From Psammoneis japonica (Eukaryota), in assembly GCA_008632985.1 (NCBI GenBank), contig QPGO01000060.1:186001-250000 (forward strand): a DNA stretch of 64,000 nt, given 5' to 3'. The notes under the pieces are model-generated. The model saw nothing but the letters and a program-made list of their open reading frames with translations, did not search any database and was not told where the DNA came from. Every line of letters starts with the position of its first letter. The first letter of the stretch is position 1. The translations under genes and the position numbers were made by a program. Positions 6,237 to 41,899 of this stretch are shown here, piece by piece.

Positions 6237-6332
6237 GTCACACATCACATTGCATCACATGACATGGCATTGCATCACATCGCATGACATGACATGATGC
6301 ATCACACGACATTGCATCATGTGACATGATGC
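6237..6332. repeat. Degenerate pentamer microsatellite (ATCAC/ATTGC/ATGAC/ATCGC)
   Basis: 5-bp periodicity visible directly; lies between the 3' ends of two convergent degraded ORFs. Confidence 0.75.
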
Positions 6333-11377: not shown

Positions 11378-11569
11378 TCACCGTGCAAACAACACGACAA
11401 TGGCTGAAATGCCGTTCGTTGAACGCAATGGAGATGGGGAGGCCTCCAACTTTCTTCACAAGTTTGTTGCCCACATCAAACACACCCTGAAAAAAGTTGG
11501 AGGCTGCCCCACTAAGCTTTCGAGAACGAACGGCATTTCGGCCATTGTCGTGTTGTTTGCGCACGGTGA
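11378..11569. repeat. Nested inverted repeat (hairpin) upstream of the Ginger-like ORF
   Basis: 11378-11420 pairs with 11525-11569 (about 43 bp, near perfect). Inner arms GCCTCCAACTTT (11442-11453) and AAAGTTGGAGGC (11493-11504). Confidence 0.85.
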
Positions 11570-12176
11570 GCGGTGAGCGCCGAATGCGCTCGGATGTTTT
11601 TTCCACAGTTGCGCCACAAATGATTAAAAGATTGGTTGTTTTTGATGCTTTTTACAAATGTATGTCGAAAACACAAGGGGGTTCCCAGCCTTAAGAATTT
11701 TCGATTTTTAAAAATGCTGTGCACAGTGGCGCAAGGCCAACCCCAACCGAGTGAAAAAAGAAAATGAAAAAGATGAAATGGCTCGAAAAGCTCGAACTTA
11801 CCCAGATTTTCACCCTTGACTCTTTTTCAACTCGGCCGAAACGAAAAAAAAGAGTCCGACTCTTTTTTCACAAACCCGGAAGCGTGAAAAAAGAGAAAAG
11901 AGTGATGTGGGCCGCATGCTGTCATGCATTTTGTACATGCGTCTTGGTTTGCGTAGGACACCAGTGAAGCAATCCAAAGTTCGCCTCACGCACCGCATCA
12001 TCAAGTCGCCATGGCGGTCTGTGATTGTTTTTGATGACTTCTTTCAATGTCATGACTGCAGAAGCAACACCAATTGACAATTTGAAGTAGACATGACATG
12101 TCTCTTGAAGGAATTGGTGAACTGTGCAGCACTTCTTCCACAACAGACCTTTTGTCTTCAAAAGATGTTGCCGGTC

Positions 12177-12370
12177 TGACAGAATGCCGAAGGTCGACAG
12201 TGACAAAGGCATGAAAGACTCCCTAAAGTGCCAGGACTGTGACAACACGAGTGCTGGCAGATGAGAAAGTGAGAAGCAGATCTCAGAGAGATCTGCTCGT
12301 CTGTCTAAATGGTCTAGCCATCATCCGCATCCAGTCTGTCCATCATGCGACAGGCACAGATGGGCTGACA
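12177..12370 (-). repeat. 3' LTR of the Copia (heavily TpA-mutated copy)
   Basis: Aligns without gaps to 19188-19381 with 17 substitutions. Polypurine tract AGGGGAGGG on the minus strand immediately adjacent (12371-12379). Confidence 0.97.
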
Positions 12371-15300
12371 CCCTCCCCTGATCTGTGGTGTCTCAACACA
12401 GAGAACAGTGCAGATCAAACCAAAGAATGGGGGTGATGTGAGGAAAAAATAGAGAGACTGGACACAGGACACGACAAGTGTCCATGCCCAATGCGCCAAC
12501 AAACAAGAGGGCAATGCGCAGCAGGGAGGCCACCGCGGAAAAAAATGTCAACAGCAGTGTCCCATCATGCGTCGAGCGTGGCGAGCGTGCAGCACCCAGC
12601 CAAGGGCCTTGGCAAGGTCATCGCTGGGGTTGACAATGCCAGGAACATGTCTCGTGACAATCTTGCCCGCTTCCTTCCATTCTTGGATCACAAAAAACTG
12701 AGTCTCAATGTGACGGGATCGCTCAGTTGGGATCAAGTGATTGATCATCTTGATTGCCGATTCGTTGTCAATGTGCAACGGGGTTGGCTCCATCTGAGGG
12801 AAGCCCAGGTCTTGTAGAACGTGACGAAGGTGCAGGACATGCTTGGCAGCAGTTCCAGCAGCACAAAATTCAGCTTCCACAGAGCTTGCAGCGGTCACCG
12901 ATTGGGTCTTGCACCGAAAAGATGTGGCAGCACCAGCTAACATGCAAGCACAGCCAGTCGTAGAATGACGGTTGCGGAGGTCATTGCCATGAGCAGCATC
13001 CAAGAAAGCAACGAGTTGATGATCACATGCAGGATGAGGGAATGATGGCAAGGTCGGGTCTGGAGTGAGACGTTCGAAGGGACAGGCAGGTGGTTTGGAG
13101 TCTCGGGCAGGCTTCCTGCAGTTCAATTCCCAATGTTCAGTGCGTCAAAGGCACTTGCATGTTCCTTTGAGCGCGTCACAGTGAACCACAGCAGGACAGG
13201 TCGAGAGCTTGGAGAGAGCAGTGATGGCACACCCAACATCCAGTCGACAGACAACGTGCACATGCAACAATTCGCCAAGAAGAGTTCGGTGGCCGAAACC
13301 AGCAGCTTGTTGCAGTTCCGCACACTCCGGGGTTCCTTCAGCTGGGCCAAAAGTGTTGTGCAGTTCGCGAACAGAGTCAACAGGCAGTGGTGCAGCCTTG
13401 CAGTCGTCGTCAAGTTCCTCGTCCGTCGGTGTCGACCAACCATGCGAGGCACAAACCCGATCCACACAGCTGTGAACAGCAATGCCAATGGAATCATCGC
13501 ATTGATGAACATCCACACCATTGAATTCGTCAATCATGCCAAGATGCTTGAACGGCGGAGAGGTTTCCGATTCCAATTGGAGAGCTTTGCCAATCTTGTC
13601 ATAGATCTTGATCGCAATAGACTCTTCAGGACAAGCGAGAGAGAAATCATCAACCTGACGGAGGAGCAAGATCTTGTGTCCTTCAAAAGCAGCAGAGTGG
13701 ACACATTTGTCATGAGCAGTGTTGCGAAAAAGCAGGTTCACATCAGATGAAATGCCGTTGATGTGCGTCTCCCAGAGCACGCCGGCTTCTGGGTGTCCTT
13801 GAAGTGCATGTTGCATCGGGAGTGCCACGCTCCTGTCCAAGTCAATGCCAAACCGAGCCTTGCACCAGGTTGCGCATGCCTCGTCTGTGGCAACATGTGG
13901 GGTGTGACGGTTGTGGAGAGTGTGCGTGGGCATCACGAGCATCCCCACCAAAGACAGGATAGCTCATGGTCGCAGCAAGGGCAAAAAACATGCGTTGGAT
14001 AGGCTGCTCAACACAGGACGAGTACGTCGAGTAGAGTCGATGTAGTGTCGACGCAGCACGGGGAGATCCATCACAGCACTGTCGAGAGCGCCGTGCACCA
14101 TCATGCTTGAGGTCATGTTGCCAATGTGGACGAAGTACGATGGCATCCTTGGGTTGTTTAATCGGTGCACCAAACATCCCCAACTCATGGAACTGGCCAA
14201 GTTGTTTGAATTCACCTGCACGCCATTCAGGCCACGTGTCCAACTTCTTGAGGCGATGGCGGGTGAAAGCACTCTAGGCTTGTTCCTCTGGAGCAATGGC
14301 GTGAGATGAGATGGCACAGATGTTGACTGCACCATTGTCACAATCAACAAAGAACGGCGGAGGGACATCGTCATCGTCCGTTTCGGAGAAATCAATGTCG
14401 GGGTGGCGGATGGCAGCAACAGCACGTATGTCGGCGTTGGTGATTTCCGGAACATGCTCATCATCAGGATCAGGACTCGGTGCATGTGTGTTGTGTTCCA
14501 TCAGAGCACGTTGTAGGGCTTGAGAGTCCAGGCGACGTTCCGGCACGAATTCAATTTCAAAATGAGTCTTGCCAGAATCACAGACTTGCTGAAAACGTTT
14601 GACAGCCTCCTCTGCCGTGAACACAGGATGATCATCGATCGACACGACACATGCACCCTTGATCTTGTTGCGGGCAGCCTTCAAAGAAGAGAAAAGACGT
14701 GCAGCAGGAGAACCACGCTTGATGTCAGAGACAAATGCTCGCCGATGGAGATCGTCCGTAGCCAAGGAAAGTCCAAACGTGGGATCAGCAAATGGTCCCT
14801 TCATGGTACGCTCAATGATCTTGGCAAAAGGATTCCCATGAAAGTGGAACTCATCCATCGTGGTTTCTTCAGTCTCGGCAGGTAAAGCCTTGCCATCTTG
14901 AGCACGTTCCAAGTGAACCACATTCGGCAGAAGAGAGTCGTGGGGAAGATCATTCATGCCCTCATCGTAGCGAATGTGCTTGGCAAGCTTGACACGCGAT
15001 GTCTCAGTGTCACACCAAAGAATGTTCTTGGCAGTGTCCGGAAGACAGCCCAAGAATGTTCCCTTGCGAGAGACAGACCAAAATTTCGCTGGGCGGTGAT
15101 TCGACGCACGCACCCACACTCGACAACCAAACGTACGAAAGTTCTTGAAATCATCCTTCTGACCAGTGGCGAGAGCAATCGGAGCAGCAGGTTGTCCGTG
15201 GGATGGCACAGTGTTGTTGACTCGAATGAAATGATGAAAAGCATGGGGCCAGAATTTGATGGGCAAATCAGCACCGATTGGCATCGCCCGGATGGCATCA

Positions 15301-18300
15301 GCAACAGACAAATGACTGCGTTCCACTGGGCCACTCTGATTTGAAGCATCTTTTCCTGCAGGACGAATTGCACAATGAAAGTCATCCTCGAAGAGTCACC
15401 AAACTTCTGGGTTCTGATGCAACTCACCTCCTTGATCCACAAACACATTTGTCTGGACATTTTGGCGAGTGCTCTTCCAGAAAGTGGCGAATCCAATTCA
15501 AAGGGGTTGCCTTGGAGACACGAGTCGCACCATGGAGACGCTTCGTTTTATGATCACAAACGGCAATCCAACAAGTCTCGCCATTCAATCCAACACAGTC
15601 CTTGGTGCCTCCGAGTTCTTGGAGCGCAGGCCAGAGAAGGAAAAATCAATCGTAAGGCCTTGGCATGGTTGGGCAGCAGTAAGAGCAGTGTTCGGACCGG
15701 CAGGTTCCTTCGTCTGCTTGGCTCGGCATGCAGGGACAAGTGTCGAGAGGAGAAGTTCCGTGGGCAAACTTGGGGACGCCATCAACATGTTCATGGGCAT
15801 GACAAAGGCAGTGATCACTCGGATGACCAAGTCGCTGATGCCATAAAAGACGTTCCGTGTCGGCCTTGAGAGACTGGACAGGAATGTTCTTCTCAGCATG
15901 CTTCTCGAAAGGAACATCTTGACAGACACAGGGGATCAACTTGCGTTCATCACGAAGAGCTTCATGTTGGTGGGTGCGACAAGTCTCAATCACACACGCA
16001 GAGACCGCTTCACACTCATCGGCAAAAGAAGGATCAGCAGTCTTGAGGCGCTCGACAGATGCATCCAGTTCGTCGTTAGATTCCGGGAGAATGAGAGGGT
16101 GAGTAAAACATTTTCCATTGATCAATTTTCCATGAATGACAACATCCTGACTCTTGCGCAATCGGTGTCGTGCAACAAACTTGCAGGTGCCGAGATCATG
16201 GAACTTGAGAGTGCAATCGACATTGCAATCTGCGCGACGAGAACCATTTTGACGAAGGAGGAGTCGCTCATCGACCAACGTAGATTGGATCTGTGGGTGG
16301 CAGCATGCACGGACCTCAACACAGCCATCAGAGTTCTCTGCAGGGATGCGAAGATAGCCGAATCCAACTGGGACAGCTTGGTGGCCAAGGGCCGGGTTGA
16401 CGGCAAGGGGACAGGGATGGGATGGGGTGAAGTCTTGGCAGCGATGGAGGAGGTCACGGTCGCCTGCACACGCAACATCGGCACCAGTGTCCAACTGAGC
16501 ACAACGTTCATTCGGAGCAAAGTTTACCCCATTGACAGAACAAGTGGATCGCAGCAGTTCCGGCTCAGGTGAGTGATTCGCCTGGTGTGGATCGATCGGA
16601 GTGACACGAACAGAATTGACGGCAGCAAAACCGTCTTCAACAGCCATGTCATCATGGGTGAGATCAATGTGTTCCTCAAAAACTGGTGTTTCTGGGTCTT
16701 CCCTCCCCTGTTCCAAAGGATCCGGAACATGAGCAGCATCGACGGAGGCTTCTTGAGGAGCAGGGTCATCATCGGGCCAACGTGTTGGCATCAAATGACA
16801 TCTTCGTGGAGGTGGAAGGGGTGGCATCCATGTCAATCTGTGAGGAAAGAGGTGTTGCAGCGGCAGATGACGAGACGGTCAGCCCCTCTTTCAAGGTCAT
16901 CCCGCTGACATTGGTCTTGTCTCAGTGAGGAGATGACGGGCAGCGTCGGAGATCCGAAACTAGCTGCGACGGCCCGATTGAAAATCCGAGGGCTGAGTGC
17001 TAGACGGAGGCGGATTTTCAGGATTGTCATGATGAGGTGGGAGCAAACCTTGGGGTCCTTGGAACTCAGAAGCACGCATGGCTGCTTCCTGTTTTAAGAA
17101 TTGACAAAAACGGATGTGGAATCCCTTGGTGCACGGGTTGTTCTTCAGGACTGGACAGTCATCAAACAAATGCTCTCCGGAGCAGACAAGACATGGTTTC
17201 TTGGAGGCTTCATGTGGAGCAACTTTCAGTTTATAGACTGAAGCTGAGCACACATGGTGAGGGATTCGATCTTCATCCGCAGATGGGATCTCGAGTTCGT
17301 GCAATTCGTTGCAAAGAGTGTCAAAGGCATCCGGAGGTGGAGATTCTGCACCAGGATCTTCAGTGGTAGAGTCATCAACTGGTTCATGGAGGGGTGTCTC
17401 AGGGATCTGGAGAGAGTTGACATTGGCAGGTGTGCGTCGCGTAGAAGCATCTGCTTGATTCCATGTACGGCATGGGTTGGATTGCGTCGTACGAGTGGGA
17501 AGGGATGGGCCACCCGGTTGGCGGAGGAAATCAGAGAGAGTCTCGACAATCTGTGCATCCGTGTGCTTCTTCTGCACAGCTGGAGACTTCCGTTCATCTC
17601 TGGTGGCACGTGACAAGAACTTGGAGTGCTTGGTGTTCTTGACAAAGATCGTCATCTCCCGTGGATCGTTCAACGTAGAGTCCGCATCAAAAATGCAGGC
17701 ACGCAGCTGTGGGAAATCATTGAAGATCATGTGGCAGTCCGTTGATGATCCATTGCCTTGGACAGGACAGGAATCAACAAGTCCAGCAGCATCATGATCA
17801 AAGGCAGGGTGATTCTCGCAGACAATCTGCTTTAGAGCCTTGCATCCGTTGCCGCAGCACGATGCAACAATCCGATGACACTTGCCATTCTTGGGGAACA
17901 TGTCCGACTTGGAGAGGATTTTGTGGAGAGAACTCTGAGCTTCCTTGCAGTGGACGTACATGCGTTGAGGCAAGTCATCATCCTTGCCGTTGCCGATCTC
18001 AAAACCCTTCTCACCACCGTGATCCTCAGCAAAACACCACAGGGGATGTGCAGCAACCTGAATCAAAGGCATGACGTTGGAGATTTTGGCACCATGCTCG
18101 CATCCCAGGGGGAGAGTCGTCATGACATGCAGGAGGTTCTCTGAACAGCATTTTCTGATCAGGAGTCGAGCTCATGATGAAAAGGGTGCCATCGTCAAGG
18201 ATGATGCGATCGGATGCATCAACACAGTGACGGAATCCATGGTCGCAAGGGACGAGAGAGCTCTGAAGAGCAACTTTTCCGTCTTCTTTGCGGTCGTAGC

Positions 18301-19171
18301 ATGCACGAACGTCTGCAGGAAGTGTGTTCGGATTGAAGAGGCATTTCGATGTTGCGGAAGATGCAGCACTTCCAGATGTCTTGGCAGAAGCTGTAGAAGG
18401 CGGAGCATGGCTCGACGCGCATGTGTTGAGTGCAGTCACCAAGTCAGTCACAGTCAATGTAGCAGGTCCTGCAGGTTTCTGAGAAGAAGACGGAGGCTGC
18501 TGTTTCTTCTGGTGGGGCGCAAGAGAGAACTCGTTCCAATTGCGATAGTTCCGTGTCATGTCCGGATCAACACGCACATGTTGGGTAGATGTGACAATGA
18601 ACAGAGATTGTCCACCGTTCTGAAGATTCGTCTTGATCATCTTTGACAAGATCGGAGTCATCAGGCAGACTGGACGAGGCCTTTGAGGGTCAAGAAGTCT
18701 GAACGGGGCTTGATCCACAATTGTCTTGATTGACTCTACATCCGTGGGATCAGCTGTGTAAGGTGGAAACGCTTCATGGATGAAATGATCGCGAAGCATG
18801 TCCGCAAAATCGTTCTTGGGTTGTGCGTGCTCTGGATCGTCAAAAAATCGATCGAGATCAGTTGTGGAGTCTGCATGAACCGTTTTCAGGCACTGATGTA
18901 GATGTGGTGTCGTTGCATGTGCCTCAAATTCGCAGTGGATCTCTGCAATTGACGCAGGAACGGCTTTTGTGAGGTCGGGAGACGCCATGGTTTTAGTGGG
19001 TGGAGCCATTTTTGGTCATGCACGCGTAGAAATCTGGCATGTTTCTACGGTCGTGAAAAATGCCGGGAAAGCGAGACAAAAAGTTGTTGGAGCAGACGAT
19101 GAGGCTCGCTCGATCGGCTCACAAAACAAACGAGTCGAGACAGAAAGCTTGGCGCAGAGGTCTGTGGCACA

Positions 19172-19187
19172 GCGCATGGCCATAACC
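19172..19187 (-). promoter_or_regulatory. Primer-binding site, GGTTATGG type (internal initiator-tRNA-Met priming as in Copia/Ty5)
   Basis: GGTTATGGCCATGCGC directly follows the 5' LTR on the minus strand. Confidence 0.65.
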
Positions 19188-19381
19188 TGACAGAATACCG
19201 AAGGTCGATAGTGATAGAGGTGTGAAAGACTCCCTAAAGTACCAGGACTGTGATAACACGAGTGCTAGTAGATGAGAAAGTGAGAAGCAGATCTCAGAGA
19301 GATCTGCTCGTCTATCTAAATGGTCTAGCCATCATCCGTATCCAGTCTGTCCATCATACGATAGGTATAGATAGGCTGACA
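19188..19381 (-). repeat. 5' LTR of the Copia (largely unmutated copy)
   Basis: Pairs with 12177-12370 and retains 17 TpA. Confidence 0.97.
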
Positions 19382-19972
19382 CGGTCTTGATGTGCATCAT
19401 AGAAAGTCGACACATAAGGTCCGTAAAGTAGATCTGTATGACACAGAAATAACCGTACTGACTAATTTAGATACGAATTATTCAATGGTGCTATTCTTAT
19501 GTTGTTTGATTTTAGATTAGGGGCTCGAAATGGCCCGAGAAGTGCACAAAAACTTTCCACTTGACAACCACTTAAGTCACCCCATAAGCCTGTTGTATTT
19601 GCACTGAACAAAAAAAGAAATAGCACCCACAGACTAAGAAAAAATGGAGGTTTTAATGGTGTTATTCTTATTGTCATAAGGTAGAACTTCGATGCCGTTA
19701 TGGGCCGTCATCTTCATTGTCGTGTGAGGCCTCTCGCTTTGCTTATCATCAGCATGCCCAAGACACCCGGATATTTAGCTTTTTAATTTTCACGCCGGTT
19801 AGGTCACCAAAACGACAAAACGAAAAAAGATCCATTTTACTGTATTATCTTGTACATTGAACAAGATTGATCCTCGCCGTGTTGGCATTGTTCTCCAAAG
19901 TGGAAGATAGAGATTACAATATATTATATTCCTTTTTAGTTTGATTGCAATAAAGGAGTAGAGAGTACAAAC

Positions 19973-27563: not shown

Positions 27564-28156
27564 GTGACACGTGCGTATTTTCTGGGAATTGCGCATGGGT
27601 TTGCATTAGATACACATACTCATTTCCAGAAGCGCTTACTTGTGTTGGTGTGGATCGATAGATGTGCCTTCTCTATGTTCCAAACTTTAGGTGCACATGA
27701 AACATCGCTGTTTGCTTCAATTAGAGCTCTGTACACTATCTAGACAGATCGGTACCGGTAGTTACAGTCGGTACGTACAGTAGTTTGAACTTGGTTTGAA
27801 GGCACTATCGCTAGCTACTAGAGAGTCGAGCTAAGTACCTGTTGTAGCTTCTATCTACTCTAGAGAGGGAGCCAGCTACAAGTCTACCGGTACGGTACCA
27901 CGCCCTGCAGCTACTCAAAATTATTTGCCAACGTGCGTGTGCCTCCCGAGGGAACGCATGGGATTTCAAACACTCTATTGAGCGACGTTGCAGTTGCACT
28001 GAAGACAACAAGGAGAACGGCTACTAGGGCGTCTACCAGCACCAAGAAATGACAAAGTCTGCTGTTATCATTTCAACACGTGCACGGGAAAGCAACGCTA
28101 TAGAATAACCGAATAAGCCTACGCGACAATCGTTTACTATTCTTATGATAATAGTC

Positions 28157-28756
28157 TTATGGCTGGGGAAGGCCAATGTCGTTGAGGTTACCCATGAGCT
28201 CGTGAACGACAATGCCCATAATGCCCATCTGCGCTGCTCGACCATTGTTGAGTTCAATGGCACGCTTCCTCTCCTTCCACTGATCAGACTGCTTGTCCCA
28301 TCCAAAGTCAATTCCGTTCCTGTAGTCTCCGAGGAACTCACTATCACCGGTAATATCCTGCATGGCAATGGTCAACATGATCACAGTGAGCCAAGTTTGG
28401 GTGGCAAGGTTTGTTCCCTGGCCAAGGGCGGCAATGTCGTCAAAGGCCTTCAATCCAAAGCCAACATCCTCCAATCCTGGGAATCGTACGCCAGCGGCCG
28501 TGGTAAGCCACCCCACGACAGCAAGCATGGCAACACGTCCGTGCCTGATCTCATACTCTCGAAGCTTGTTGAAATTCTCCTTGTCTCCGTCGATACAGAA
28601 TCCCATTGGATCCCAGAAGCCGAGCGGTGCCTGAGAACCGATCTCATCGGAGAGAGCGTTCTTCACGGCAACGGTGGTGGCCCGGCTGTGTTGCGCAGCT
28701 GGAGCAAAAGCCGAGACACCGGCGACAAGGAGCGAAAGCGCAGCAACAGTCTTCAT
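28157..28756 (-). CDS. Fucoxanthin-chlorophyll a/c binding light-harvesting protein (Lhcf/FCP family)
   Basis: VSAFAP bipartite plastid presequence, APLGFWDPMG, EIRHGRVAMLA, ELNNGRAAQMGI motifs. Confidence 0.96.
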   Translation of the reverse strand: MKTVAALSLLVAGVSAFAPAAQHSRATTVAVKNALSDEIGSQAPLGFWDPMGFCIDGDKENFNKLREYEIRHGRVAMLAVVGWLTTAAGVRFPGLEDVGFGLKAFDDIAALGQGTNLATQTWLTVIMLTIAMQDITGDSEFLGDYRNGIDFGWDKQSDQWKERKRAIELNNGRAAQMGIMGIVVHELMGNLNDIGLPQP

Positions 28757-29346
28757 GGTGGAACCTCTTGTTGTGTTGTGAACAAGCATTTTTGCCCGTC
28801 AGTCATGTCAGACGACCGCGGCGGCGGCGATCTTTGCTTCAACTTCTGCGAACCTCCGGGTTTGGAACAGTCTGATTTCGCCGATTAGATGTCTTGGTCG
28901 CGAAACACGAACAAGCATTTAGTGCTGACTCGTGATTCGGACATTACCTTGCTGCGACGTGGCGGCAACTCAACCTCGAAAGTGCCACCAAACGCAACAA
29001 GCACAGATACACTGTATGGTAGATCAACTCCAGTCTTTTTTTCTTAGCTAGTAGGTATGAGCGAGCAAGGCAAGATAAGAAGCTGAAAACACAGAACCCA
29101 TTTTCCCGTGACAATTCAAATCAGCAGGTTTTCAAAATGTGGCCCAAACGATTGATCGCTGATCGCTGGTGATTATGTGAACGACCGAACAAATTTGTTT
29201 CAATCACGAGTCGTCAGAGCATCTGAGTTTGAGTTTAGAACCCGGAGATTGAAAGATCCAAGCTGAAGATTGTAGGTTCCTACCGGAACCGGATACCACA
29301 CCGGGCAGGAGAAGGAAAAACAGAAGTGAACCTGAAAAGAACAACC

Positions 29347-30708
29347 ATGGCAGAAAAGAAAGCACAACGCATCGCCATTATCGGCGCCGGTCCGTCTGGT
29401 ACGGCTGCCCTTCGAGCCTTTCAATCGGCAATTTCCGAGAATTGTGAGGAGGAGATTCCCGAAATAGTCTGTTTTGAAAAGCAAGACGATTGGGGCGGTC
29501 TATGGAATTACACCAATCAGACGGGAGTCGACGAATACGGCGAGCCGGTCCACAGTAGCATGTATCGCTTTTTGTGGAGCAATGGACCCAAGGAATGCTT
29601 GGAGTTTGCTGATTATTCTTTTAAAGAACACTTTGGAAAGCCCATTGCATCCTATCCACCCCGTCCCGTCCTGGCCGACTACATCAAGGGACGAATGGAA
29701 AAAGCGGCTGTCGTACGTGATTGGTGTCGCTTTCGTGCTGTGGTCCGTATGGTGTCGTTTAGTGATGAAACACAAAAGTTTACAGTTATGGTTCATGATT
29801 TAGTACAGGATCATGTGTATACGGAAGATTTTGATTATGTTGTTGTGGCGACGGGACACTTTTCCACTCCCAATCTCCCTCATTTTGATGGCATTGAAAG
29901 TTTTCCTGGACGTGTCCTTCATGCACACGACTTTCGCAATGCATTGGAATTCCAAAACCAGAACGTCATGGTGGTGGGAAGTTCCTACTCGGCAGAAGAT
30001 ATTGGATCTCAGTGTTGGAAGTACGGTGCCAAATCCATCACCGTCAGTTACCGTTCCAATCCTATTGGATTCAAGTGGCCCGACAATTGGGAAGAACGAC
30101 CAATGGTAGTCCGCGTGGAAGGAAAAAACGTTCATTTCGTGGACGGTACTTGCAAGGAAGTGGATTCTATTATACTTTGTACCGGATACAAACACCATTT
30201 TCCCTTCTTGCAAGACGAATTGCGTCTCAAGACGGAGAATAGACTCTGGCCGCTTGGCTTGTACAAGGGCGTTGTCTGGGAGAAGAATCCCAAACTCTTT
30301 TATCTGGGCATGCAAGATCAGTTCTATACCTTCAACATGTTTGATGCGCAAGCCTGGTTTGCACGAGATGTCATTCTCGGCCGCATTGAACTCCCAAACC
30401 AAGACGAGATGCACGCGGACTCTCTGGCCTGGCGGGAGCGTGAAGAAACGTTGCAGACCGATCACGATCAAATCTGGTTTCAAGGGGACTATGTCAAGGA
30501 GTTGCTGCGCTGGACGGAATACCCCGACTTTGATGTCGATGGTGTGAATCGCACCTTTGAGGAATGGGAGCATCACAAGTCGGAAGATATCATGGGCTAT
30601 CGCGATCGCCCGTACCGTTCACTCATGACTGGTGACATGGCTCCGGTCCATCACACACCTTGGGTCGAGGCCATGGACGATTCTATGGAATCATACCTTC
30701 GTGAATGA
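29347..30708 (+). CDS. Flavin-containing monooxygenase, bacterial trimethylamine monooxygenase-like
   Basis: GAGPSG FAD motif, [46 protein letters not shown] fingerprint, [19 protein letters not shown] tail. Intronless. Confidence 0.93.
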
Positions 30709-31203
30709 ATAGTAGAGTCATCATGTATAGTACTGTGCTTCGTTTGGGATTGAATCAAGTTATATGGGAGCAACTTTTTCTTGAGGATAACCCGAGAAAC
30801 GTGGACACCTCCTCTCGGTTCGAACTGTTACATGCAATGGAAGCATCATGCACAGTCGGTGACTTTTGGGATTTTGAAAGCAATGAAAACCCCTTTGGAC
30901 TGGAACAGCACACATGGACCGTTTTCGTCTGTCTGCTGATGAAAGGTGTGGATGTTCTCGAGAGATGCGTGAACGATAATTTTGAGTCACCTAAAAGGCT
31001 TTGTGTGCAGACGATGGAAGACGATTTCAACGTTACCCCACAGAGCTACTCGTAGTAGAGGCTGTTAGTCTTATGATAACTCCTTCCTACTTTACTAGCG
31101 CTCTAGCTAGAGCTAGCGTAACTGGCTTCAAAAAAAGAAAGGTCTTATCATATCATCGGCAAATCCAATGTCATCCGGTACGGTATGTACCATACGGTAA
31201 GTG

Positions 31204-31281
31204 TGGTCTTGCATTCGTCAGCCAAAGATTCCCAATATGAACTGCGGTCTTGCATTCGTCCGCCAAAGATTCAATTTGAAC
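31204..31281. repeat. Short tandem duplication (about 41 bp) upstream of the cyclophilin
   Basis: GGTCTTGCATTCGTC.GCCAAAGATTC..AT.TGAACTG occurs twice. Confidence 0.7.
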
Positions 31282-31351
31282 TGAAACGGAGAAAAGATGA
31301 CCGTTGATGCATGATGGTTGTCATTGCTTGTTGACTGTTGATTGATTGACG

Positions 31352-32297
31352 ATGATGCGCCTCTTCACCATGACGACGACAGCGTCTCGCACGCGGGCGT
31401 TTCTTTTTCTCGTTCTCTTATTTTCATTCCTATGCTCAGTTGTCGCTCAAGAAGAAGTAGAAGCAGAAGATGATAAGGGCAGCAGCCGGTGGAGTCGCAT
31501 TTGGAACGGCCTTTCGGATAGGGAGCGTATGTTTTTCAAGGCCATCGGAGGCTCCATGCTCTTTCTCTTGTTGAGTGGAATCTTGGGTCTCGACGGAGGT
31601 AAACCACCTACACTAGAAGTCATTCCGCTCGATGAAGCTTCGTCTCCTTCCAATCCCCGGGTCTTTTTCGATATTACAATCGGAAACAAAAAGGCCGGAC
31701 GGATCACGATGGAGCTGTTTGCTACGAAAACACCAAAGTCCGCAGAGAACTTTCGGGCTCTGTGTACCGGAGAAAAAGGCGAACCGCTCCATTATAAGGG
31801 ATGTCCGTTTCATCGGGTCATTCCAGGCTTCATGTGTCAGGTACGAGGTAGTATTTGTATTCTCATAATTCTGTTCTTTAGTTCGTTGGATTTCTAATGG
31901 GTGCGTTTCTCTGGCTAACTTTCGCTTATTTTTATTGTACTTGACTCATGTGTTACTACTTTAGGGCGGCGACATCACACAAGGCAATGGTACGGGCGGA
32001 ATGTCCATTTACGGCTCCACATTTGACGATGAGTGGGACAATGGATTCATTTCTCACGATGTGCCCGGTCTCCTTTCCTGTGCCAACCGCGGACGCAACA
32101 CGAATGGCTCGCAATTCTTTCTCACCACGGCTGCCACCAAATGGTTGAATTGCAAGCATGTTGTCTTTGGCCGTGTCGAAAATGGGATGCAGGTTGTCAA
32201 GAAAATCGAAGCCGTGGGCAGTTCCAGTGGCAAAACGCTACAACCCGTTGTTATTGCGGATTGTGGAGAAGTCACGGGCAAGAAAAAGACTAACTAA
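31352..32297 (+). CDS. Cyclophilin-type peptidyl-prolyl isomerase with signal peptide and TM segment; exons 31352-31840 and 31965-32297
   Basis: [34 protein letters not shown] across a GT-AG intron, [16 protein letters not shown]. Confidence 0.95.
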
Positions 32298-32986
32298 GGA
32301 GAAGACGATACCATATAATGCTATAGTGTTTTGGAAGGAGGAGACATCGTAATGTGTACGGTAGTCCCGTGTATTCTCGACATTCTAGAGTCCTCTACGT
32401 GCTACGTTTAATCTTCTCCTCATAGTCGTTGACAACGGTAGCGTGCAGATGTCAGAAAAGACAAACAAAAACACACAAGATGTTGATGCGAAAACAGGCG
32501 TTGACCAGCCAAGGTACATATGGTAAATCGTTGTGCAGCAACCCTTCATAAATTATTGAACCCGACATTGGCTGCGCCCAGAGTTGCTGCATGCACCATC
32601 TTGGGAGTTTTGGGACACATCTTGTGTGTGCTGATCGCAAGGGAAAGGGCCGCATCAAACGGAGTTGGCAACATTCAAAAACACACTTTCTGGATCTCCA
32701 CATGAGTGGCTGGAAAGTTCCTGGAATTAAAAGTGCTTGTCAGGCCAGGAAAAGCAAAGACTGATCAATTTGGGTAAGATGGTGGTGCAGACAATGTTGT
32801 AAAAGTGGTGAGTCCAGCATTTTTGACAGCCACCAAACAGCCACAAAATGAGAAGAGGCAACAACAAGAACCATCATTGTGGCAGGTGCAGAAGATGGTG
32901 GGGGAAGCACATGGATGAGGGTTCAGCAACTGCAGTCCAGAGTCAAATGTGGCAGTTGCATCAGGGGGCATTTTTTGGCACTCTTT

Positions 32987-33023
<37 letters not shown>

Positions 33024-35250
33024 TTTAGACCAACAATTGGCACCATTCCACAGTCCCTGGCAGGACATCTCTCTCCTGATGCCCAGCGGTGTGCCGCCTC
33101 TCAGTTGGGAGCATTCTTTGCAACTCTGCAAAGTTTTGCACCACCCTCCACACTGTCAGATTGCAGCATGTGTTGTTTGCAATTGCTGTCTGAAACAATT
33201 GAGCAGTTGCAAAAATGTGCAGTGTGTTTGCTCTGCCAGAGAAAAGCCTGTGTGGGCTGGTGCTGGAAAGCCAGAGAAATTGTTTTTGTGCCAAGTTGCA
33301 TTTTTTGCATGCAACATTTCACAATTTTTGTCTTGTTGAGGTGCGTGCAGTGGAGTTGCTTGCTGCTGACTGCCAGATTCACATGGAGGGGCTGCTGCAA
33401 GTTGTTTCTCATTGTAAATTGGCACTCTCACAGCCGCCGATCCCTGCGCATGCCATTGTTTGTGAGTGGCCTCATGGGAGCTCTCATGGTGCACAACCAT
33501 CTCTTGGAGCACACCAGCACACCCAGTGTGCCAACAGGAGTGTCATGAGCCTGTGATGATGGCATGCTGACTCCATTGCAAACTCATGGCTCATGTGTTT
33601 TCTCACCACGGGCAGAACACAGTGAGAAATGTTCAGTCTGAAGAAATTGTCATGCAAATCACGACGCAATGACAAAATGGTTGAATTGCAAGCATGTTGT
33701 CTTTGGCCGTGTCGAACATGGAATGCAGGTTGTCAAGAAAATTGAAGCCATGGGCAGTTCCAGCGGTAAAACGGCACAACCCGCGGTGATTGCGGATTGT
33801 GGAGAAATCATCACGGGCAAGAAAAAGACCAATTGAGAAGAAGACAACACCATAAAATGCTGCAGTGTTTTGGAAGGAGGAGACATCGTAATGTGTGTGG
33901 CAGTCCCGTGCATTCTCGTCATTCTAGAGTCCTCTGCGTGCTGCGTTTGATCTTCTCCTCACAGTCGTTGACAACGGTGGCGTGCAGATGTCAGAAAAGA
34001 CAAACAAAAACACACAAGATGTTGATGCGAAAACAGGCATTGACCAGCCAAGGTACATGTGGTTAATCGTTGTGCAGCAACCCTTCATAAATTGTTGAAC
34101 CCGACATTGGCTGCGCCCAGAGTTGCTGCATGCACCATCTTGGGAGTTTTGGGACACATCTTGTGTGCTGATCACAAGGGAAAGGGCCACATCAAATGGA
34201 GTTGGCAACATTCAAAAACACACTCTCTGGACTTGCACATGAGTGGCTGGAAAGTTCCTGGAACCAAAAGTGCTTGTCAGGCAGGGCAAAGCACAAACCA
34301 ATCAGTTTGGAGGGAAAGATGATGCAGACAACATGGTGCAAAAGCAGAGAGTCCATTTTAGACAGCCACCAGACAGCCACAAAATGAAAAGAGGCAACAA
34401 CAACCACCACCATTGCAGCAAGTGCTGTGGAAGGTGGTGGGAAGCATGCAAATGAGGGTTCAGCAACAACAACAGCCCAGAGACAAATGGCGGTTGCGCA
34501 TCAGGGGAGATTTTTTGGCACTCTTTGCAGCAGCAGTGGCATTTTAGATTTTAGACCAACAATTGGAGTGCTGAAGCAACCAGAGCCAGTGCAGAGAAAT
34601 CATCATGCACCACTCCACAGTCCCCAGCAGGACGTCTCTCTCCTGAAGCCCCAGCATGGTTCACCATTTCTCAGTGGGGAGCATTCTTTTTTGCAGCTGC
34701 AAAGTTTCGCCCTCCACACTGTGTCAGGTTGCAGCATGTGTTGTTTGCAATTGCTGCCTGAAACAATTGCAAAAATGTGCAGCATGTTTGCTCCACTGGA
34801 GAAAAACTTGCGCTGCTGGGGGGCTGGGTGGAAAAGAGGAGAGATTGTTCTTTTTGTGCTGAGGAGCCGCAACTTTTGTGTGTTCGACATTTCGCCACAA
34901 CTCCTCTTTTCTTGTTGGTGTGTGCTGCAGTGGAGTTGCTTGCTGCTGACTGCTGAGTTCATGTGGAGGGGCTGCTGCAGCAAGTTGTTCCTCATTGTGC
35001 ATTGGCATGGTCTTTACAGCCACGAATCTCTGTGCCTCGTTCTCTTGGGTGGCCACGCAGGATGACGAGGAGCTCTTGTGCACAATCATCTCTTGGAGAG
35101 CACACACCCAGTGTGCCAACAGGAGTGTTGTGATCCTGTGATGATGACTGGCATGCTGACTCCATTGCAAACTCATGGCTCGTGTGTTTTCTCACCACGG
35201 GCAGAGCACAGTGAGACATGTTCGCATCACATTGCAAATTTCACGACGAC
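32139..35250. repeat. Tandem duplication of about 1.54 kb: copy 1 about 32139-33675, copy 2 about 33675-35250, including a pseudogenic copy of the cyclophilin 3' end
   Basis: AAATGGTTGAATTGCAAGCATGTTGTCTTTGGCCGTGTCGAA at 32139 and 33675. Colinear to CTCACCACGGGCAGA.CACAGTGAGA at about 33602 and 35191. Confidence 0.93.
32988..33020. repeat. (CAG)11 microsatellite
   Basis: Direct reading; only (CAG)3 at the matching position of copy 2 (about 34528). Confidence 0.95.
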
Positions 35251-35531
35251 GAGGCGTGAGGCAACAAAAAAACAGCCGCGCCAGCTGCTGACTGACAGAC
35301 TGACAGAAGGATTTACCTGCGTGGCTGGCTGGCTCGCTTCCTGGCATCGCGTCATGATGACTTTTTGATTTATATATATTTATGCTTGAATATATTCTGT
35401 ATTCTCGTGCGTTGGGCAAGCACGAACAACGCTTTTCATTGGCGAAAATCCTGGTACACATCACCCGTTGATTTGTACGTCGTAGACACTGGTGACGTTT
35501 CGAAAAATGCCGCACAACATCACATCGCACC

Positions 35532-38500
35532 ATGGCGGCGGCCACAAGCAGCATGACTACCACACTGATACGTACCGAACCACATCGTCGTTTAGTGCCA
35601 CATCATCATCATCATGCGTATTCACTAGATGGTGATGATGATTGCAGCACTGATGATTATGAGGAAGAAGAGGAAGAACAGCTCTTACCTCCTCCTCAAT
35701 CGTGGTTTGCAGAAGAATCGGATTCGGTTGATGAGTTGTTTGACGACAACAATCAAGAGGATTCTTCTTTTCCACCAACAAACAATGTGGTGTATTATGA
35801 ATCCAAACATGACGATGAAACAAATAATTTGAGTGCCGTCGTGGGTGCACCGGCTCGGGCACCGTCTTGGAAAGAATTGAGTTTGCAGGTCCTTCCGGCT
35901 GCCGCACGCGAACTCTTGTCAAATTCCATGAGACGTGCCTATCATTATTCACTCGTTTCGTATTCCAAGGGACGATGGACACGTCGGTATTCGGAACTTA
36001 CCAACAATACCGGTGGGTATTTTCGGAATAATAGTTTTTCCATGGGACAAGAAAACAACAACAACAACATTCCTCTGCCACCCTTTTCGAGTTTGCCGTG
36101 GGTCGATCGACAGTTGGTTGCGGAATGGCGAACGTGTGATTTGACCTTTGATTCTATCAAACAAGAACAACAAGAGGACGAGGATGATGACGAGGATGAT
36201 TTTGATCGTGCCCGAACGCTCGTACCGAAACCCATTGCCAAACCGACGTGGGCCAAAAAGGAAGTTTGTTTTGAATGCCACAAACCCTTTGGTCCAACGT
36301 TGTTACGACATCACTGTCGTTTGTGTGGTAAATCGTATTGTCAATCCCACTCGTCTCAATCACATCGTTTGCCCCATTTGGGGTATGACGCACACGTACC
36401 GGAACGCGTCTGTGATGTGTGCAAGAGCTTGTTGTTGGAACAGAATTTAGCCGAACGCGTTGCGTGGCGACTCGCGCGGTGTCGGGATTATCTCGACAAT
36501 CATGACGAGTTGACACCCTACTTTGAAACGGGCGTCGACACAATGGAACAAGTGGCGGCCCGCGTCACACGTGCCGCCATTTCCATGGCACGGTCCATTC
36601 CGTTGGGTGCACAAGCGCATGTGGCAGTCGAAACGGTCGATGTGTTGCGCAAACACGGACTCAAGGGTATATATGGATTGATATTGAGAAAGGAATTTTT
36701 GGCAGCGGCCGATTTGTTGTGTCGGGCCCTAGGCATCAACAAGACGGCGTGGCCCCTGTCGGTACACGAACTGAGTGCCGCCATTTTTTATGCTTTGGCA
36801 CAACACCGTGCCATGCGGGGGATGAGTCCCGAACGGGAATACTTGATTCATGCGTATAAAAGCAAGCAAGATGATGTGACGGAAAAGGACGAGAGCAACG
36901 AAGAAGAGTGGGGTCCGTTTGTTTCGGCTTGGACTGGTAGTTCCCATAAGGATGGAGTCAATGGTGATCAAAATCAGGACGATAATGTTGTTGACCCAAA
37001 CAACACAACCTTGGTGGATGAAACCGACACGTACGATCCTCTGGCAGAAAGCATTGTGGATTTGATCGCCATGGCGGACAATGCCATTCAGTCACACAAC
37101 AATAGCAATCACGAAAGCAACAAGGAGCAATCCTCGGATTCAGCGACACCTCCCGACTTGCCCTTTACTCCCGTCTGTGAATTTGTCCCGGACCCCGTCA
37201 TGTCGTCACTTATTTTCTACGCTCCCATTGCTCTCAACTTTGTCTATGCGCTCCGTGAGGTGGATATGCAGCTCTTGGCGGCACAACAGGGTTGGAGACT
37301 CTTGTACGCGCACTTGGAACAAGACACGCTGGACCGGCCCGCGTCGGCCCTCTTTGTGCATTCCCGACAAAAAATCGCGTGCTTTGCCGTTCGTGGTACC
37401 GCCACCATTAACGATGTTGTAACGGACATTCGTCAAATGCCCATTTCCTTTCCAGAAAATAACATCCAAGACAATCATGAAGCAGCAGCAGAAGTTGATG
37501 ATTGGACACCGGTGTTTCGAGGACAGGGTCTTGCCGTTTGTGGAATGGCAAGAGCGGCTGTTAATTTGTATCGAGAACATATTGATGCCTTGGTGACGTT
37601 GGTGGAACGTGGATACCGGATAAGAATTACTGGCCATTCACTTGGTGGTGGTGTAGCGACTCTTTTGGGTGCGTTGGTTTTACGGCATATTGAAAGCGCA
37701 GCCAATCTTGGTGATACACTGGGACACGCGGCGGCTATAGATTCTCATGCACCCTCCAACAGTGTCATTGTACAGCGCAATGATCTTTTGCGTGTGTATG
37801 GCTACGGAACTCCGTCTTGTGTGGATGCCAAGCTGTCAGAGTATTTCAAGACATTTGTCACAACGGTCGTCTTGCACGATGATGTGGTGCCTCGATTGAC
37901 GCCGACGAGTATCAGGGGACTGCTCAAGCATCTCTTGCACATTCGCGAAACGTGGGTCAAGGCTCACTTGCAGAACGATTTAATGGCAATCACGGAACGG
38001 GCTCGAACCGTGTGGGCCCCCAAGTGGAGAGGCAGTTTTACCATTTCCAAGTCGTCCTCGAAAAAGTTTAAACGGTACTGTCGGAAACAAATGCAAATTG
38101 GCAAACGCAAGCTTTTGACGGTAAAAGGTCAGCTTGTGAAAAGTATAACGGAAGATGGTAGGAGTAGTGATGACAGTGATGGCAAGCCAGAAGAGGACAA
38201 TGCGAAATCGGAGAACGGTGCTACTGCTAGTTATCCGAGTGCGACGACGACGTTCTCTCCCACAGAGTCGGACGAGTCTGATGGAGTATCCGATGGCTCT
38301 ATTGACAAATGCGACCCTCAAGTTGAGGCGAAAATGCAGGACCTTTCGTTTGAGTCTGACCCGGAAAGCCGAATGGATTCTCCTCCTGCGGCTCATCTCA
38401 TGGTGGATTACATGGGTGGAATCGATTATCGTACAGAAGGCGTCGTGATTGACGGTGACGAATTCTTTGATGCCGATGAATCGTTGGTAGAAAAAGACGA

Positions 38501-39768
38501 AGACGTTCAGTTACCAATGTCGGAGGATAAAAGGGAGGATGCAGATGATCCTTTATTTCCGCCTGAGGCGTTTCCAGAGCCAATGACGCAAGAAGATCCA
38601 GATACTCCGACCGAGGGAAGTGACGATAAAGATATACCAATTGCCCCAATGTCTACTTCTTTCAATACGGAAGACGGGAGTTGGGCTCGTTTTGATACAT
38701 CCTCAGATGCAGATACCGCTAACGCAGAAAGTGGTGCCAAATCAACTAAGACAGAAGCCGAGGCATTCGGTATGGAATCTGAGGGCTTGGAGGAAAGTGA
38801 CGAGAATGTGGGTGTCATGCTTGAGGAAACGCCACTTCCACGCATGTTTTTACCAGGAAAGATTGTGCACCTTTATACCCATCGTGGAGGTTACAAAGCT
38901 GCATATGTGCCTCGCGCGTTTCGAGAGCTTCGCCGCATTAGCTTGGCCGGAAATATGCTCTCGGATCACACGTCCAAGGCATACTATGAAGCTTTACTCG
39001 AGGTGCAATCGGTGAGGAGGGCGGAAGAAGGTCTCCCCAGGTGGACCGCTTTTGACGAGGACGACACATGGTGAGTACATTGCGGAGTCTTTGTGTTTTA
39101 CTGCTTCGCACTGTGATAGTCTCAACAGCTTTTGCTCGTCAACCCAATTGTAGCTCCTGTTGTGCAAGCAGATTCACTTGGGCTAGTACCTCGGACAGTG
39201 AAGCCCAAGAAGCTCGTGACAAGCACAAGTAAGTACAGCCGCTGCCAGGAATGAAGATATTCTGGAATAATCTAATCTCATTGCTCATCCTTTTTCTCTC
39301 CCGTGCCTCAGTTGTCGCTCATGTGGTACTTTGGTACGTGTGTCTTGTTTGAAATCTTCGATGCTGCGTCTTTGTAACGGTATGTTACTCATTGCCGGCC
39401 ATTGATTTTCTCTCTGCCAGGTGTGCAATCCTTGCGCGTCGAATCGGATTCCGTTGCCTTCGGTTGGAATAAACGTCCCCGTCCGTGTATGTGACAGGTG
39501 TTACAATGACATTGGGGGAGTTTTGACTGGTCCTTATGCTCTGACCAGTAGCTTTATGGAGTCTGGTGAAGCTAGTCATAAAACACCTGAGCAAGACAAG
39601 AACTGTCAAGCGAAACTTTCTGTTGATCTGGAGAGCACACCACCACATTTCGTTTCTGTTGACAAGAGGAATGAAAACCAGCAACCCGAAAGAAAACGAG
39701 AAAGACGCAGCCAGGTTGTGGATGAGCTGGCATCGCGTATCAACTCGCTGAATTCTACTATGTCGTGA
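35532..39768 (+). CDS. FYVE domain / class-3 lipase / FYVE domain protein; exons 35532-39070, 39154-39228, 39312-39333, 39421-39768
   Basis: FYVE (CFEC..F..RHHCRLCG..C..RVCDVC), lipase (AVRGT, ITGHSLGGG, DVVPRL). A second FYVE is assembled in frame across three GT-AG introns (CSCC..KHNCRSCGTLVC..RVCDRC). Confidence 0.92.
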
Positions 39769-40306
39769 CGCAACATAAAGGATGCCTCATTCGAAGAAAA
39801 AAAATTGTTTTATACATGAGCTTCTGCATGTCCAACTTATCGCTAGAGAGACGTCAATTAGAATGTTACCACGCATATCTCCATTTTCAAAACCCTCTCT
39901 GCATACCCCAATAGAAACTAAAACCTCTGAGAATGCTGTTTCTGTTCTGACTTTCATTCGGCATCACTCCTGGGGACTTATGGCATGATAAGACCACAGG
40001 CAGTAATAACCCGCGAGGAGCACAGTAGAGACGGCTACTTTAGGGCCCCAGAGCAAACCAACACATATCTCTCTTAGTTGATTTGCGTTTCTATTTGTTG
40101 TACCAATTCTATAGGTTCATAAAACACCTCGCTCATTCAGTAGTAGTAGCAGCAGCAGCAGTAGAGCTAGCGCAGTAGTAATGGCGTGAAATGCATTAGC
40201 TACTCGTTGAGTTAGCTGGGATCACCTTAACTCGTGATCTCTTCCTAAATAATATGAAGATGAGCAACAGCGACAGATTACATTCTGCCCTCAGCCTTTA
40301 CCCTTG

Positions 40307-40488: not shown

Positions 40489-41899
40489 ACCATGTGGACG
40501 GTAAGGAACCATCTGCCGGCAGCACCCGAACCACCACCACCACCTCCTCCGCCACAATTGAAGTCCTCGCACAAGTCTCCCGTCACACAGTCCAGCATGG
40601 CAGAGAGCTGGGCTCCACACTGAGGACAGCACTCGCTGGCAATGGTGGTACACATTTGCTGGACATCACCACATGTGTCACTGTCCAGGGCACTTCCCGT
40701 GCAGTCTTCGTCAGCGTTGGGACACTCGCGAATGACACATTCCGTGTACAAGCGAACGCTCTCGGACATGCAGTCCAAGGGAAGTAGGAAGCGAGGGACG
40801 TCGTTGAGTGCCGGTTCTTCTTCCAAGAGACGGCGGGTGACATTGTCGCCGCTGCAATCAAACGGAGGACAAGCATCTCCGAGAGCACAACCCATGAGCC
40901 ACGCCAGGTCGCATGAGCAGTCGGGGCAGCATTCTGCCGAGATGGTGGTGCAAATGCCCTCCACGTCGGCGCACGTGTCTCCATCAGGGGAGCCGCCCGT
41001 ACAAACGGCATCGGCGTCGGGGCAGTCATGGAGGAGACACTTGGAGTGGCTCCACACGGATTCTGACACACACCTCAGTCCGTCCGAAGGCTTTTCCGGA
41101 CAGGTGGAGTCAGGTGCGGGAGCGGGCGTGGATGGAGACGGAGGGGGGGTCGTTGCATTTGTTGCATTGCCACCGCACACAAAGCCCCTGCAGGCGTCTC
41201 CAGTGGCACAGTCGAGCACAACAGATGGCTCCGTTCCACACGAGGGGCAACATTCGCTGGTCATCTTGTTGCACATGAGCTGGACGTCATCGCATGTGTC
41301 TCCGTCCGGGGCGTCTCCGGTGCACATTTGATCAGCGGCAGGGCACTCTCGAATGACGCATTCTGTGAAGGCCCGAAGGCCCTCGGAGAGACAATCCAAA
41401 TCTCCAAGGGCTTGGAGGAAACGAGGCACTTTGTCGTCGACGGCGGGCGTCATCATGTCGCCAGAATGATCCTTCTCAGGCAAGAGATTGCGTGTGGACG
41501 TCTGGTTGCCGCTGCAATCAAACGGCTCGCAAATGTCTCCGAGAGCGCAATCCATGAGCCTGTTCAGTGCAAACAATGAGTGAGGCGGTGCTTGTTCACG
41601 ACTGCGACAATCGATTTGTTTGCGTGCCATGCCAAGTCACACTTGCAGTCGTTGCAGCATTCACGAGCAATGGTGCCGCAAATGTCTTCAGCATTGCTGC
41701 AGTCGTCCCCATCCGGGGAACCGCCGGTACAAACGGCATCGGCTTCGGGACAATCGTTGATGAGGCACTTGGCACAGTTCCAGACGGACTCGGAAATGCA
41801 CCTCAATCCACTCACGTCACGATCCGGACACTGTTGGGACACCACTGGCGAGGGCAAAGATACAAGCCCCACCACGAGAGCGGTGGTTTTGATAATCAT
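40437..41899 (-). CDS. Secreted, probably GPI/membrane-anchored protein with four Cys-rich repeats; exons 41899-41628 and 41559-40437; possibly pseudogenising
   Basis: Signal peptide MIIKTTALVVGLVSL. Repeats C.SE.V....C.I..CP.AD..CTG..PDGDTC.DV...C..I.SECCP.C. Gly linker plus hydrophobic tail. A 68-nt GC-AG intron restores CDLAW|LMDCALGD, matching repeat 3. Confidence 0.75.

Follow-up and report, generated by a model that had tools for sequence, protein, structure and literature searches.

What decides whether a sequence loses its TpA dinucleotides when two copies of it lie side by side and one of them is spared? This question is raised by a cyclophilin gene of the diatom Psammoneis japonica, the 3' end of which has been duplicated in tandem, and we address it in the 64,000 nucleotides at positions 186,001 to 250,000 (forward strand) of contig QPGO01000060.1, assembly GCA_008632985.1; this whole stretch is referred to as the window, and positions are counted from its first letter. 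Here we show that the copied gene tail has undergone conversion of TpA to TpG or CpA (written TG/CA) whereas the original tail has not, and we consider it rather probable that a region-targeted TpA hypermutation acts in a silent domain and spares active gene sequence. An initial annotation of the locus had proposed repeat sensing, of a kind resembling repeat-induced point mutation (RIP), rather than specificity for transposable elements. The locus is made up of the following parts (o/e, observed-to-expected ratio; X, the block that completes the duplicated unit and is present as X1 and X2).

31352 to 32297, plus strand: cyclophilin gene, with exon 1 at about 31352-31838, an intron at 31839-31962 (GT..AG) and exon 2 at 31963-32297, ending in a TAA stop.
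32136 to 33671, no strand: copy 1 of the tandem duplication, 1536 bp, starting inside cyclophilin exon 2; placed by repeat search, alignment and blastn.
32298 to 32570, plus strand: copy-1 3' flank, of normal composition, with 20 TpA (o/e 0.91) and 14 CpG (o/e 1.12).
32571 to 33671, no strand: X1, a TpA- and CpG-poor block with 5 TpA, 13 CpG and 264 TG+CA, and a (CAG)n run at about 32980-33020.
33672 to 35250, no strand: copy 2 of the tandem duplication, about 1579 bp; placed by repeat search, alignment and blastn, with the homology of the last ~30 bp judged by eye.
33672 to 33836, plus strand: cyclophilin coding-tail fragment of copy 2, 54 codons with the frame open, covering Pro_isomerase positions 115-158 only.
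33837 to 34109, plus strand: copy-2 3' flank, hypermutated, TpA o/e 0.31.
34110 to 35250, no strand: X2, the second copy of the TpA- and CpG-poor block, with 4 TpA, 18 CpG and 260 TG+CA.
35251 to 35365, no strand: TpA-poor stretch past the end of the duplication, 1 TpA in 115 bp.

The gene matches Pfam PF00160, positions 2-52 in exon 1 (E 1.4e-14) and positions 53-158 in exon 2 (E 9.7e-24). A contig of a sequencing run that happens to be labelled X2 joins 31838 to 31963, which is not in itself proof of expression. The duplicated unit of about 1.54 kb consists of the last 162 bp of the cyclophilin gene, 273 bp of 3' flank and the 1.1-kb block X. Repeat search returned 11 direct-repeat families, all with a spacing of 1536-1589 bp (32136-33634 against 33672-35223), the copies are joined by one local alignment, and blastn gives 80.7% identity across 1587 columns, with no third copy of the unit in the window. 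The match of copy 2 to Pro_isomerase bears out the claim of the initial annotation that the duplicated DNA is host-derived, and its claim that this DNA is not retro-derived also holds, because the copy is genomic, head-to-tail and contiguous with the gene; the process acted on DNA in place. The coding fragment of copy 2 has its TAA stop changed to TGA.

Both copies are matched by contigs from an independent public read set, in which 19 of the 25 placed contigs are at least 99% alike to the window; k-mer depth is about 50-80 throughout the unit, and those contigs listed for X1, X2 or the flank of copy 2 carry 0-1 differences. A read-set contig departs from the window at 32186, 32249 and 32252, in the coding tail of copy 1, and at two of these three sites (32186 G>A and 32249 T>G) its base is that of copy 2; such differences could represent an allele, a strain difference or an exchange between copies. 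Identity varies along the unit, from 91-97% in columns 32136-32732 and in the last 89 columns to 66-82% in the centre, which also holds 118 of the 127 gap columns and most transversions. The centre of X is rich in indels, the (CAG)n run counting about 14 units in X1 and only about 3 in X2 (34530-34545). An identical 13-base word occurs at 32119-32131, in exon 2 just 5' of the start of the duplication, and at 33601-33613 and 35196-35208, near both X ends; it may be due to chance (roughly a few percent) or be the remnant of an older rearrangement.

The signature is clearest in the gene-derived part of copy 2. Between 32321-32560 and 33860-34099 (240 aligned bases) there are 16 substitutions and TpA falls from 17 to 5; 12 of the substitutions convert TpA to TG/CA (8 to TG, 4 to CA), 2 convert CpG to TG/CA and 2 are transversions. 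This recount is identical with the 12 of 17 TpA and 4 other changes first reported, and the binomial probability that at least 12 of 16 substitutions fall in the TpA>TG/CA class is 2e-11. The whole 273-bp flank (32298-32570) has 20 substitutions, of which 13 are TA>TG/CA (binomial P = 8e-11) and 3 CpG>TG/CA, and its TpA count drops from 20 to 6. In copy 2, 13/20 TpA and 3/14 CpG are converted, and no site of the flank shows the reverse, with TA in copy 2 where copy 1 reads TG/CA. The 162-bp coding part gives a weaker signal, with 3 of 16 substitutions TA>TG/CA, 1 in reverse and 8 unrelated. In the 435 bp of gene tail plus flank, the 24 TpA of copy 1 correspond in copy 2 to 16 converted, 3 lost by transversion and 5 kept, so that the conversions number 0 in copy 1 and 16 in copy 2. 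The five surviving TpA are scattered, and no gradient such as simple spreading would produce is seen along the copy-2 tail. From the flank counts (13/20 TpA, 3/14 CpG and 4 unrelated changes in 273 bp, all of them old differences and not de novo mutations), TpA conversion is estimated at about 4-5 times CpG decay and roughly 25-50 times background per base.

The rest of the unit agrees with the initial annotation, according to which both copies become nearly TpA-free further in and normal TpA content returns at about 35365: the two copies hold 5 and 4 TpA in ~1.1 kb each (o/e 0.07 and 0.06), and dense TpA restarts at 35371, preceded by a single TpA at 35314. There is no signal of ongoing conversion among 32 variants between window and read set, which include 2 TA->TG/CA and 2 in the reverse direction.

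The direction of change, for which an alignment of two sequences alone gives no answer, was obtained from an outgroup to a retrotransposon with long terminal repeats (LTRs) in the same window.

12177 to 19381, minus strand: complete Copia-type LTR retrotransposon with a TpA-free body, TG..CA termini and the target-site duplication CGGTC at 12172-12176 and 19382-19386.
12177 to 12370, minus strand: its 3' LTR, converted and TpA-free, reading TG/CA at 14 sites that are TA in the 5' LTR.
19188 to 19381, minus strand: its 5' LTR, spared, with 17 TpA in 194 bp.

The element has Pfam matches to RVT_2, gag_pre-integrs and SH3_retrovirus, and its relatives are found in diatom Copia. The outgroup was drawn from 76 relatives by keeping the 35 full-length diatom Copia polyproteins (1250 residues or more), and the columns used were those with tyrosine in at least 60% of them. 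At the 23 conserved-tyrosine columns the window element has Cys 11 times, His 9 times, Tyr twice and Phe once, while other conserved residues are retained (Trp 7/7, His 21/25, Cys 8/10). Since Tyr has been replaced by Cys or His at 20 of 23 columns, TAY codons (Y, pyrimidine) became TGY or CAY and TpA was lost, not gained, which upholds the direction given in the initial annotation. The open reading frames (ORFs) of the element contain 0.5% Tyr, 4.8% Cys and 6.0% His, compared with 2.9-4.3%, 1.4-1.9% and 2.2-3.7% in three normal genes. None of the 76 database relatives carries the signature, all being Tyr-normal (1.9-4.5%), a result of little weight since a degraded copy would hardly be annotated as a protein; when metagenomes were scanned with the Copia integrase ORF for relatives bearing the signature, 106 pattern matches resulted, of which 0 were confirmed.

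The two LTRs also date the conversion. Over 208 aligned bases they differ at 14 sites with TA in the 5' LTR and TG/CA in the 3' LTR, at 0 in reverse, and by 4 other transitions and 3 transversions. Because LTRs are identical at insertion, these one-sided differences place the conversion after integration and on DNA, which rules out that RNA was edited prior to reverse transcription; independent agreement on action at the DNA level comes from copy 2, which is host-derived. The TpA-poor domain ends at the inner edge of the 5' LTR, where TpA occurs at 18994, 19027, 19046 and 19183 and then about every 10 bp.

The 30 polarised events (16 from the duplication and 14 from the LTR pair, all at TpA by construction of the count) are unevenly spread over sequence contexts, converted out of available targets being 11/19 for TAC, 12/22 for TAT, 2/10 for TAA and 5/25 for TAG (Fisher P = 0.002). 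At sites with one TAY and one TAR strand (R, purine) it was the TAY strand that was converted in 15 of 19 (P = 0.019). Moreover, surviving TpA lies in YTAR in 45% of cases in depleted bins against 16% in normal bins, and in RTAY in 6% against 30% (chi-square 66, P = 4e-15). Conversion thus favours 5'-T-A-Y-3' on either strand, which is a new detail.

The same composition extends over about half of the window. TpA o/e is below 0.15 in 62 of 128 bins of 500 bp (48% of the window), with a TG+CA o/e of 1.6-2.1, and the profile is bimodal, 58 bins outside 32001-35500 lying below 0.15 and 38 bins at 0.4 or above. Normal bins hold per 500 bp 21.8 TA, 26.5 CG and 73.9 TG+CA, and depleted bins 1.8 TA, 11.1 CG and 108.4 TG+CA; the sums of 122.2 and 121.3 are nearly equal, as expected from transitions that turn TA and CG into TG/CA. 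Depletion has sharp edges, at about 32555, 19187 and 35365. Loss of TpA and loss of CpG are uncoupled, since CpG o/e is 0.7-0.9 in the Copia body at 12.5-19 kb, where TpA o/e is 0-0.26, and both are lost at 45.5-55.5 kb; CpG o/e is 0.03-0.4 in many depleted blocks and 0.19 and 0.25 in the X copies. CpG decay is a separate and slower companion process which does not explain the loss of TpA. In the TpA-free blocks the stop codons TAA and TAG are absent and Tyr codons nearly so; the 64 kb contain 83 overlapping frames of at least 150 amino acids on both strands. Gene callers could be misled by this, for the loss of Tyr codons and of TAA/TAG gives long spurious ORFs and hides transposons from homology searches.

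The initial annotation had left it to be checked whether the unit is mostly a multicopy transposable element fragment, and block X is not recognisable as such in the window, the read set, Pfam or phmmer. Elsewhere in the window the best similarity to X is a tblastx match of E 0.002 over 20-23 residues and a blastn match (word size 7) of E 0.019 over 24 bases, which we treat as chance. The read set holds no other copy at 80% identity or more, and 2 of the 25 placed contigs are less than 95% alike. None of the 4 ORFs in X has a Pfam family, even at E <=1; a phmmer search against 1.84 billion representatives gave 1 match at E 3e-4 and none at 1e-10; and the interval 28000-40000 contains 0 inverted repeat pairs or terminal repeats. 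We considered X as a coding transposon and rejected this, given the lack of Pfam matches and the Cys/Trp/Gln-rich ORFs, which look like a by-product of missing TAA/TAG.

The history of X can be approached by comparing its two copies. X1 and X2 have 16 sites that read TG in one and CA in the other among 45 double differences. Had conversion followed duplication, half of the doubly converted sites should be discordant in this way, and about 40 would be expected (P = 3e-8). The deficit of discordant sites indicates that X was already a target while single-copy. If X once had normal composition, about 60% of its conversion would be shared and predate the duplication, and the remainder would have continued independently in both copies. 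A moment estimate for CpG gives about 36 CpG in X at the time of duplication, of which about 75% have been lost per copy since.

We propose that a TpA-specific A:T>G:C hypermutation of DNA would turn TpA into TpG/CpA inside blocks that resemble silenced DNA of transposon or foreign origin. Downstream of the cyclophilin gene, block X would already have been such a target when the 1.54-kb duplication put a promoterless gene tail and its 3' flank between two X copies, inside the targeted domain. The embedded copy-2 tail would then have lost about two thirds of its TpA, and the original tail, always abutting X, would have been shielded as part of an intact gene. Since the copy-1 tail is untouched though it abuts X, the determinant is best read as position or chromatin-transcription state, and as neither transposon sequence identity nor repetition as such. 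The initial annotation is therefore upheld in one part, in that the process is not tied to transposon sequence, a host-derived tail having been hit; its other part, repeat sensing, is unsupported. One depleted block is the Copia element; X and most other blocks have no identifiable origin. By analogy with what has been proposed for the chlorarachniophyte Bigelowiella natans, the agent may be a DNA adenine deaminase, with an ADAT2-type protein as candidate. The boundaries at 32555-32570, 19187 and 35365 offer concrete places for chromatin and deaminase work.

Several points weigh against this proposal. We infer silent chromatin in the targeted blocks only from their composition and CpG loss, and X, the supposed prior target, is without recognisable origin in Pfam, phmmer and the window comparison. 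The share of conversion placed before the duplication presupposes a normal starting composition of X. Gene conversion may have reset part of the unit, and the uneven divergence can be read either as a gene-proximal part refreshed by gene conversion and then rapidly losing TpA, or as an X core decaying faster in all respects. Duplication and embedding in the domain coincide in copy 2, and at this locus the two causes are therefore confounded. The sparing of copy 1 and of the 5' LTR could in principle be explained by selection on a 3' untranslated region or by use of the LTR promoter. The evidence derives from a single 64-kb window and the two natural experiments that it contains.

Repeat sensing, in which a RIP-like recognition of homology mutates TpA in duplicates and selection purges mutated alleles of the functional tail, appears doubtful to us. 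It would accommodate the conversion of a new copy of host sequence and the continued, independent conversion of both X copies after duplication (the 16 discordant sites among 45 double differences), and in each of the 9 repeat pairs of 150 bp or longer found in the window one member or both are TpA-poor, no pair being wholly unaffected. However, a repeat sensor sees both copies, and the sparing of copy 1 argues against it: the 435 bp of tail and flank show no conversion in copy 1 compared with 16 in copy 2, and the non-coding flank of copy 1 retains its 20 TpA. Likewise one LTR of a pair 7 kb apart is fully spared (0 against 14). Most of the conversion in X appears to predate the duplication, and the read set yields no further copy of X at the 80% identity level or above. 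Moreover, the target in B. natans is single-copy, according to the main text of the preprint that describes it (Mettrop et al., bioRxiv 10.64898/2026.01.13.699255). On these grounds the RIP-like homology sensing put forward in the initial annotation is not upheld. A mixed form, to which we give similarly little credence, is a homology-aware, RIP-like defence of diatoms by adenine deamination, in which duplication marks DNA for T-A-Y>T-G-Y and active transcription units (the copy-1 tail, the 5' LTR) are shielded; if this were true, duplication would explain both the attack on copy 2 and the continued conversion of both X copies.

Specificity for transposon or foreign DNA would require X to be an old, unrecognisable mobile or foreign element that captured the gene tail or was rearranged with it, and we regard this as unlikely. 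X is poor in TpA and CpG like the transposon blocks, its sharp left edge at about 32555-32570 was present already at duplication, and each X copy repeats, close to its end, the 13-base word of exon 2 (32119-32131). Nevertheless, X has no similarity to other window blocks, no Pfam domain, no protein relatives and single-copy depth, and the plain head-to-tail layout, contiguous with the gene and without terminal repeats in 28000-40000, speaks against it as well.

We consider it very improbable that the pattern is an artefact, produced by systematic errors of base calling or assembly where methylated repeats carry modified bases. Base modification is probable in the depleted blocks, and some base callers for long reads go wrong at such sites; but independently built contigs match both copies, and the Tyr>Cys/His pattern and the sharp LTR edge are biological in form.

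Editing at the RNA level, by ADAR-like conversion of A to I in double-stranded RNA that is fixed via reverse transcription, has next to no likelihood. In its favour, many targets are retroelements. The preference of ADAR for a 5' U, cited in the Discussion of the B. natans preprint (bioRxiv 10.64898/2026.01.13.699255), would also fit TpA. However, LTRs are regenerated identical at each retrotransposition, yet only one is converted, and copy 2 is a genomic tandem copy that includes the non-genic X; moreover, the 3' neighbour preferred here is a pyrimidine, whereas ADAR favours a 3' G. Equally hard to credit is a reversed polarity in which copy 1 and the "normal" DNA gained TpA (CpA>TpA, RIP-type) and copy 2 is ancestral: a two-sequence alignment cannot by itself set the direction, but the 20 of 23 conserved Tyr codons that are Cys/His in the depleted Copia element, its low Tyr content (0.5% against 2.9-4.3%) and the conserved intact genes at the "normal" TpA level oppose it.

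Other parts of the window show further features of composition. The interval 11000-12176 is half TpA-depleted (12 TpA in ~1 kb) with normal CpG (o/e 1.06-1.18) and contains an imperfect palindrome at 11378-11569; it has an older block poor in TpA and CpG (~500-11000) on one side and the Copia insertion on the other, is similar to the copy-2 flank and may likewise be an enclosed sequence. At 40500-41500 GC is 59%, with 0-4 TpA per 500 bp and near-normal CpG (o/e 0.8-0.9), and a 399-amino-acid open frame on the minus strand is without Pfam match; an internal repeat pairs 40898-41081 with 41626-41809 at 74% identity. An open frame at 6896-7753 (minus strand), in a TpA-free block, has a weak match to zf-RING_2 (E 4e-4, below the Pfam cut-off) and may be a degraded host gene or a transposon-borne one. 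A tandem array with an apparent period of ~60 bp lies at 1191-1727, also in a TpA-free block, with self-matches offset by 120-300 bp at 71-77% identity. The FYVE-lipase protein encoded nearby agrees with a diatom host, its best relatives (58% identity at most) being proteins named as those of Nitzschia, Seminavis, Fistulifera, Cylindrotheca and others, and a protein atlas look-up of the neighbouring FMO gene added no taxonomic information.

Among known systems, RIP of ascomycete fungi is alike in being an irreversible, dinucleotide-specific transition hypermutation that ruins transposons and reaches adjacent or host sequence. Its chemistry is the opposite, since C>T at CpA creates TpA, whereas here A>G destroys it; moreover, RIP depends on repetition and mutates both copies of a duplicate, neither of which is seen here (0 against 16 in the tails, 0 against 14 in the LTRs, and X apparently converted before duplication). 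CpG decay through deamination of 5-methylcytosine also yields TG/CA and is present in the same blocks, but it cannot remove TpA, and in the copy-2 flank it accounts for 3/14 CpG compared with 13/20 TpA lost. APOBEC on cDNA and ADAR on double-stranded RNA likewise make context-specific transitions that disable mobile elements; they act before or during reverse transcription, in contrast to the present process, which acted after integration and also on non-retro DNA.

In the literature searched we found no report of TpA hypermutation in diatoms, and the signature was met only in the preprint on B. natans. In mutation-accumulation lines of that organism, 231 of 302 new mutations fell in two integrated viral regions, 230 of the 231 being A>G or T>C and all GC-biased ones lying on TpA; of the two regions, the larger one is single-copy and transcriptionally silent, and DDE transposase and reverse transcriptase are among the domains enriched with the TpA-depleted footprint (Mettrop et al., bioRxiv 10.64898/2026.01.13.699255). 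As far as the main text of that preprint goes, the two cases share changes that are nearly only A>G/T>C at TpA on either strand, discrete blocks that contrast sharply with the genome, long-term depletion of TpA with enrichment of CpA/TpG, and independence from repetition. The hosts differ, a diatom (stramenopile) here and a chlorarachniophyte (rhizarian) there, and the footprint described here is deeper, with a TpA o/e of ~0.05 over 48% of the window against a Rho of 0.45 in the viral region reported for B. natans. Judged by the same text, our locus is distinguished by a Copia element and host-gene-derived DNA among its targets, loss of CpG, preference for T-A-Y, and a 5' LTR and an active gene tail that escaped conversion; neighbour context (trinucleotide or downstream) and diatoms are not mentioned in it. 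Purity is lower than the 230/231 reported there, at 13/20 in the flank (plus 3 CpG transitions) and 14/21 in the LTRs, these being old differences that include background changes. A signature thus described once before, in a 2026 chlorarachniophyte preprint whose main text reports it on integrated viral DNA only, is now found in much deeper form in a diatom, which points to a wider genome-defence or heterochromatin-linked system of DNA adenine editing, possibly one shared across the stramenopiles, alveolates and rhizarians (SAR).

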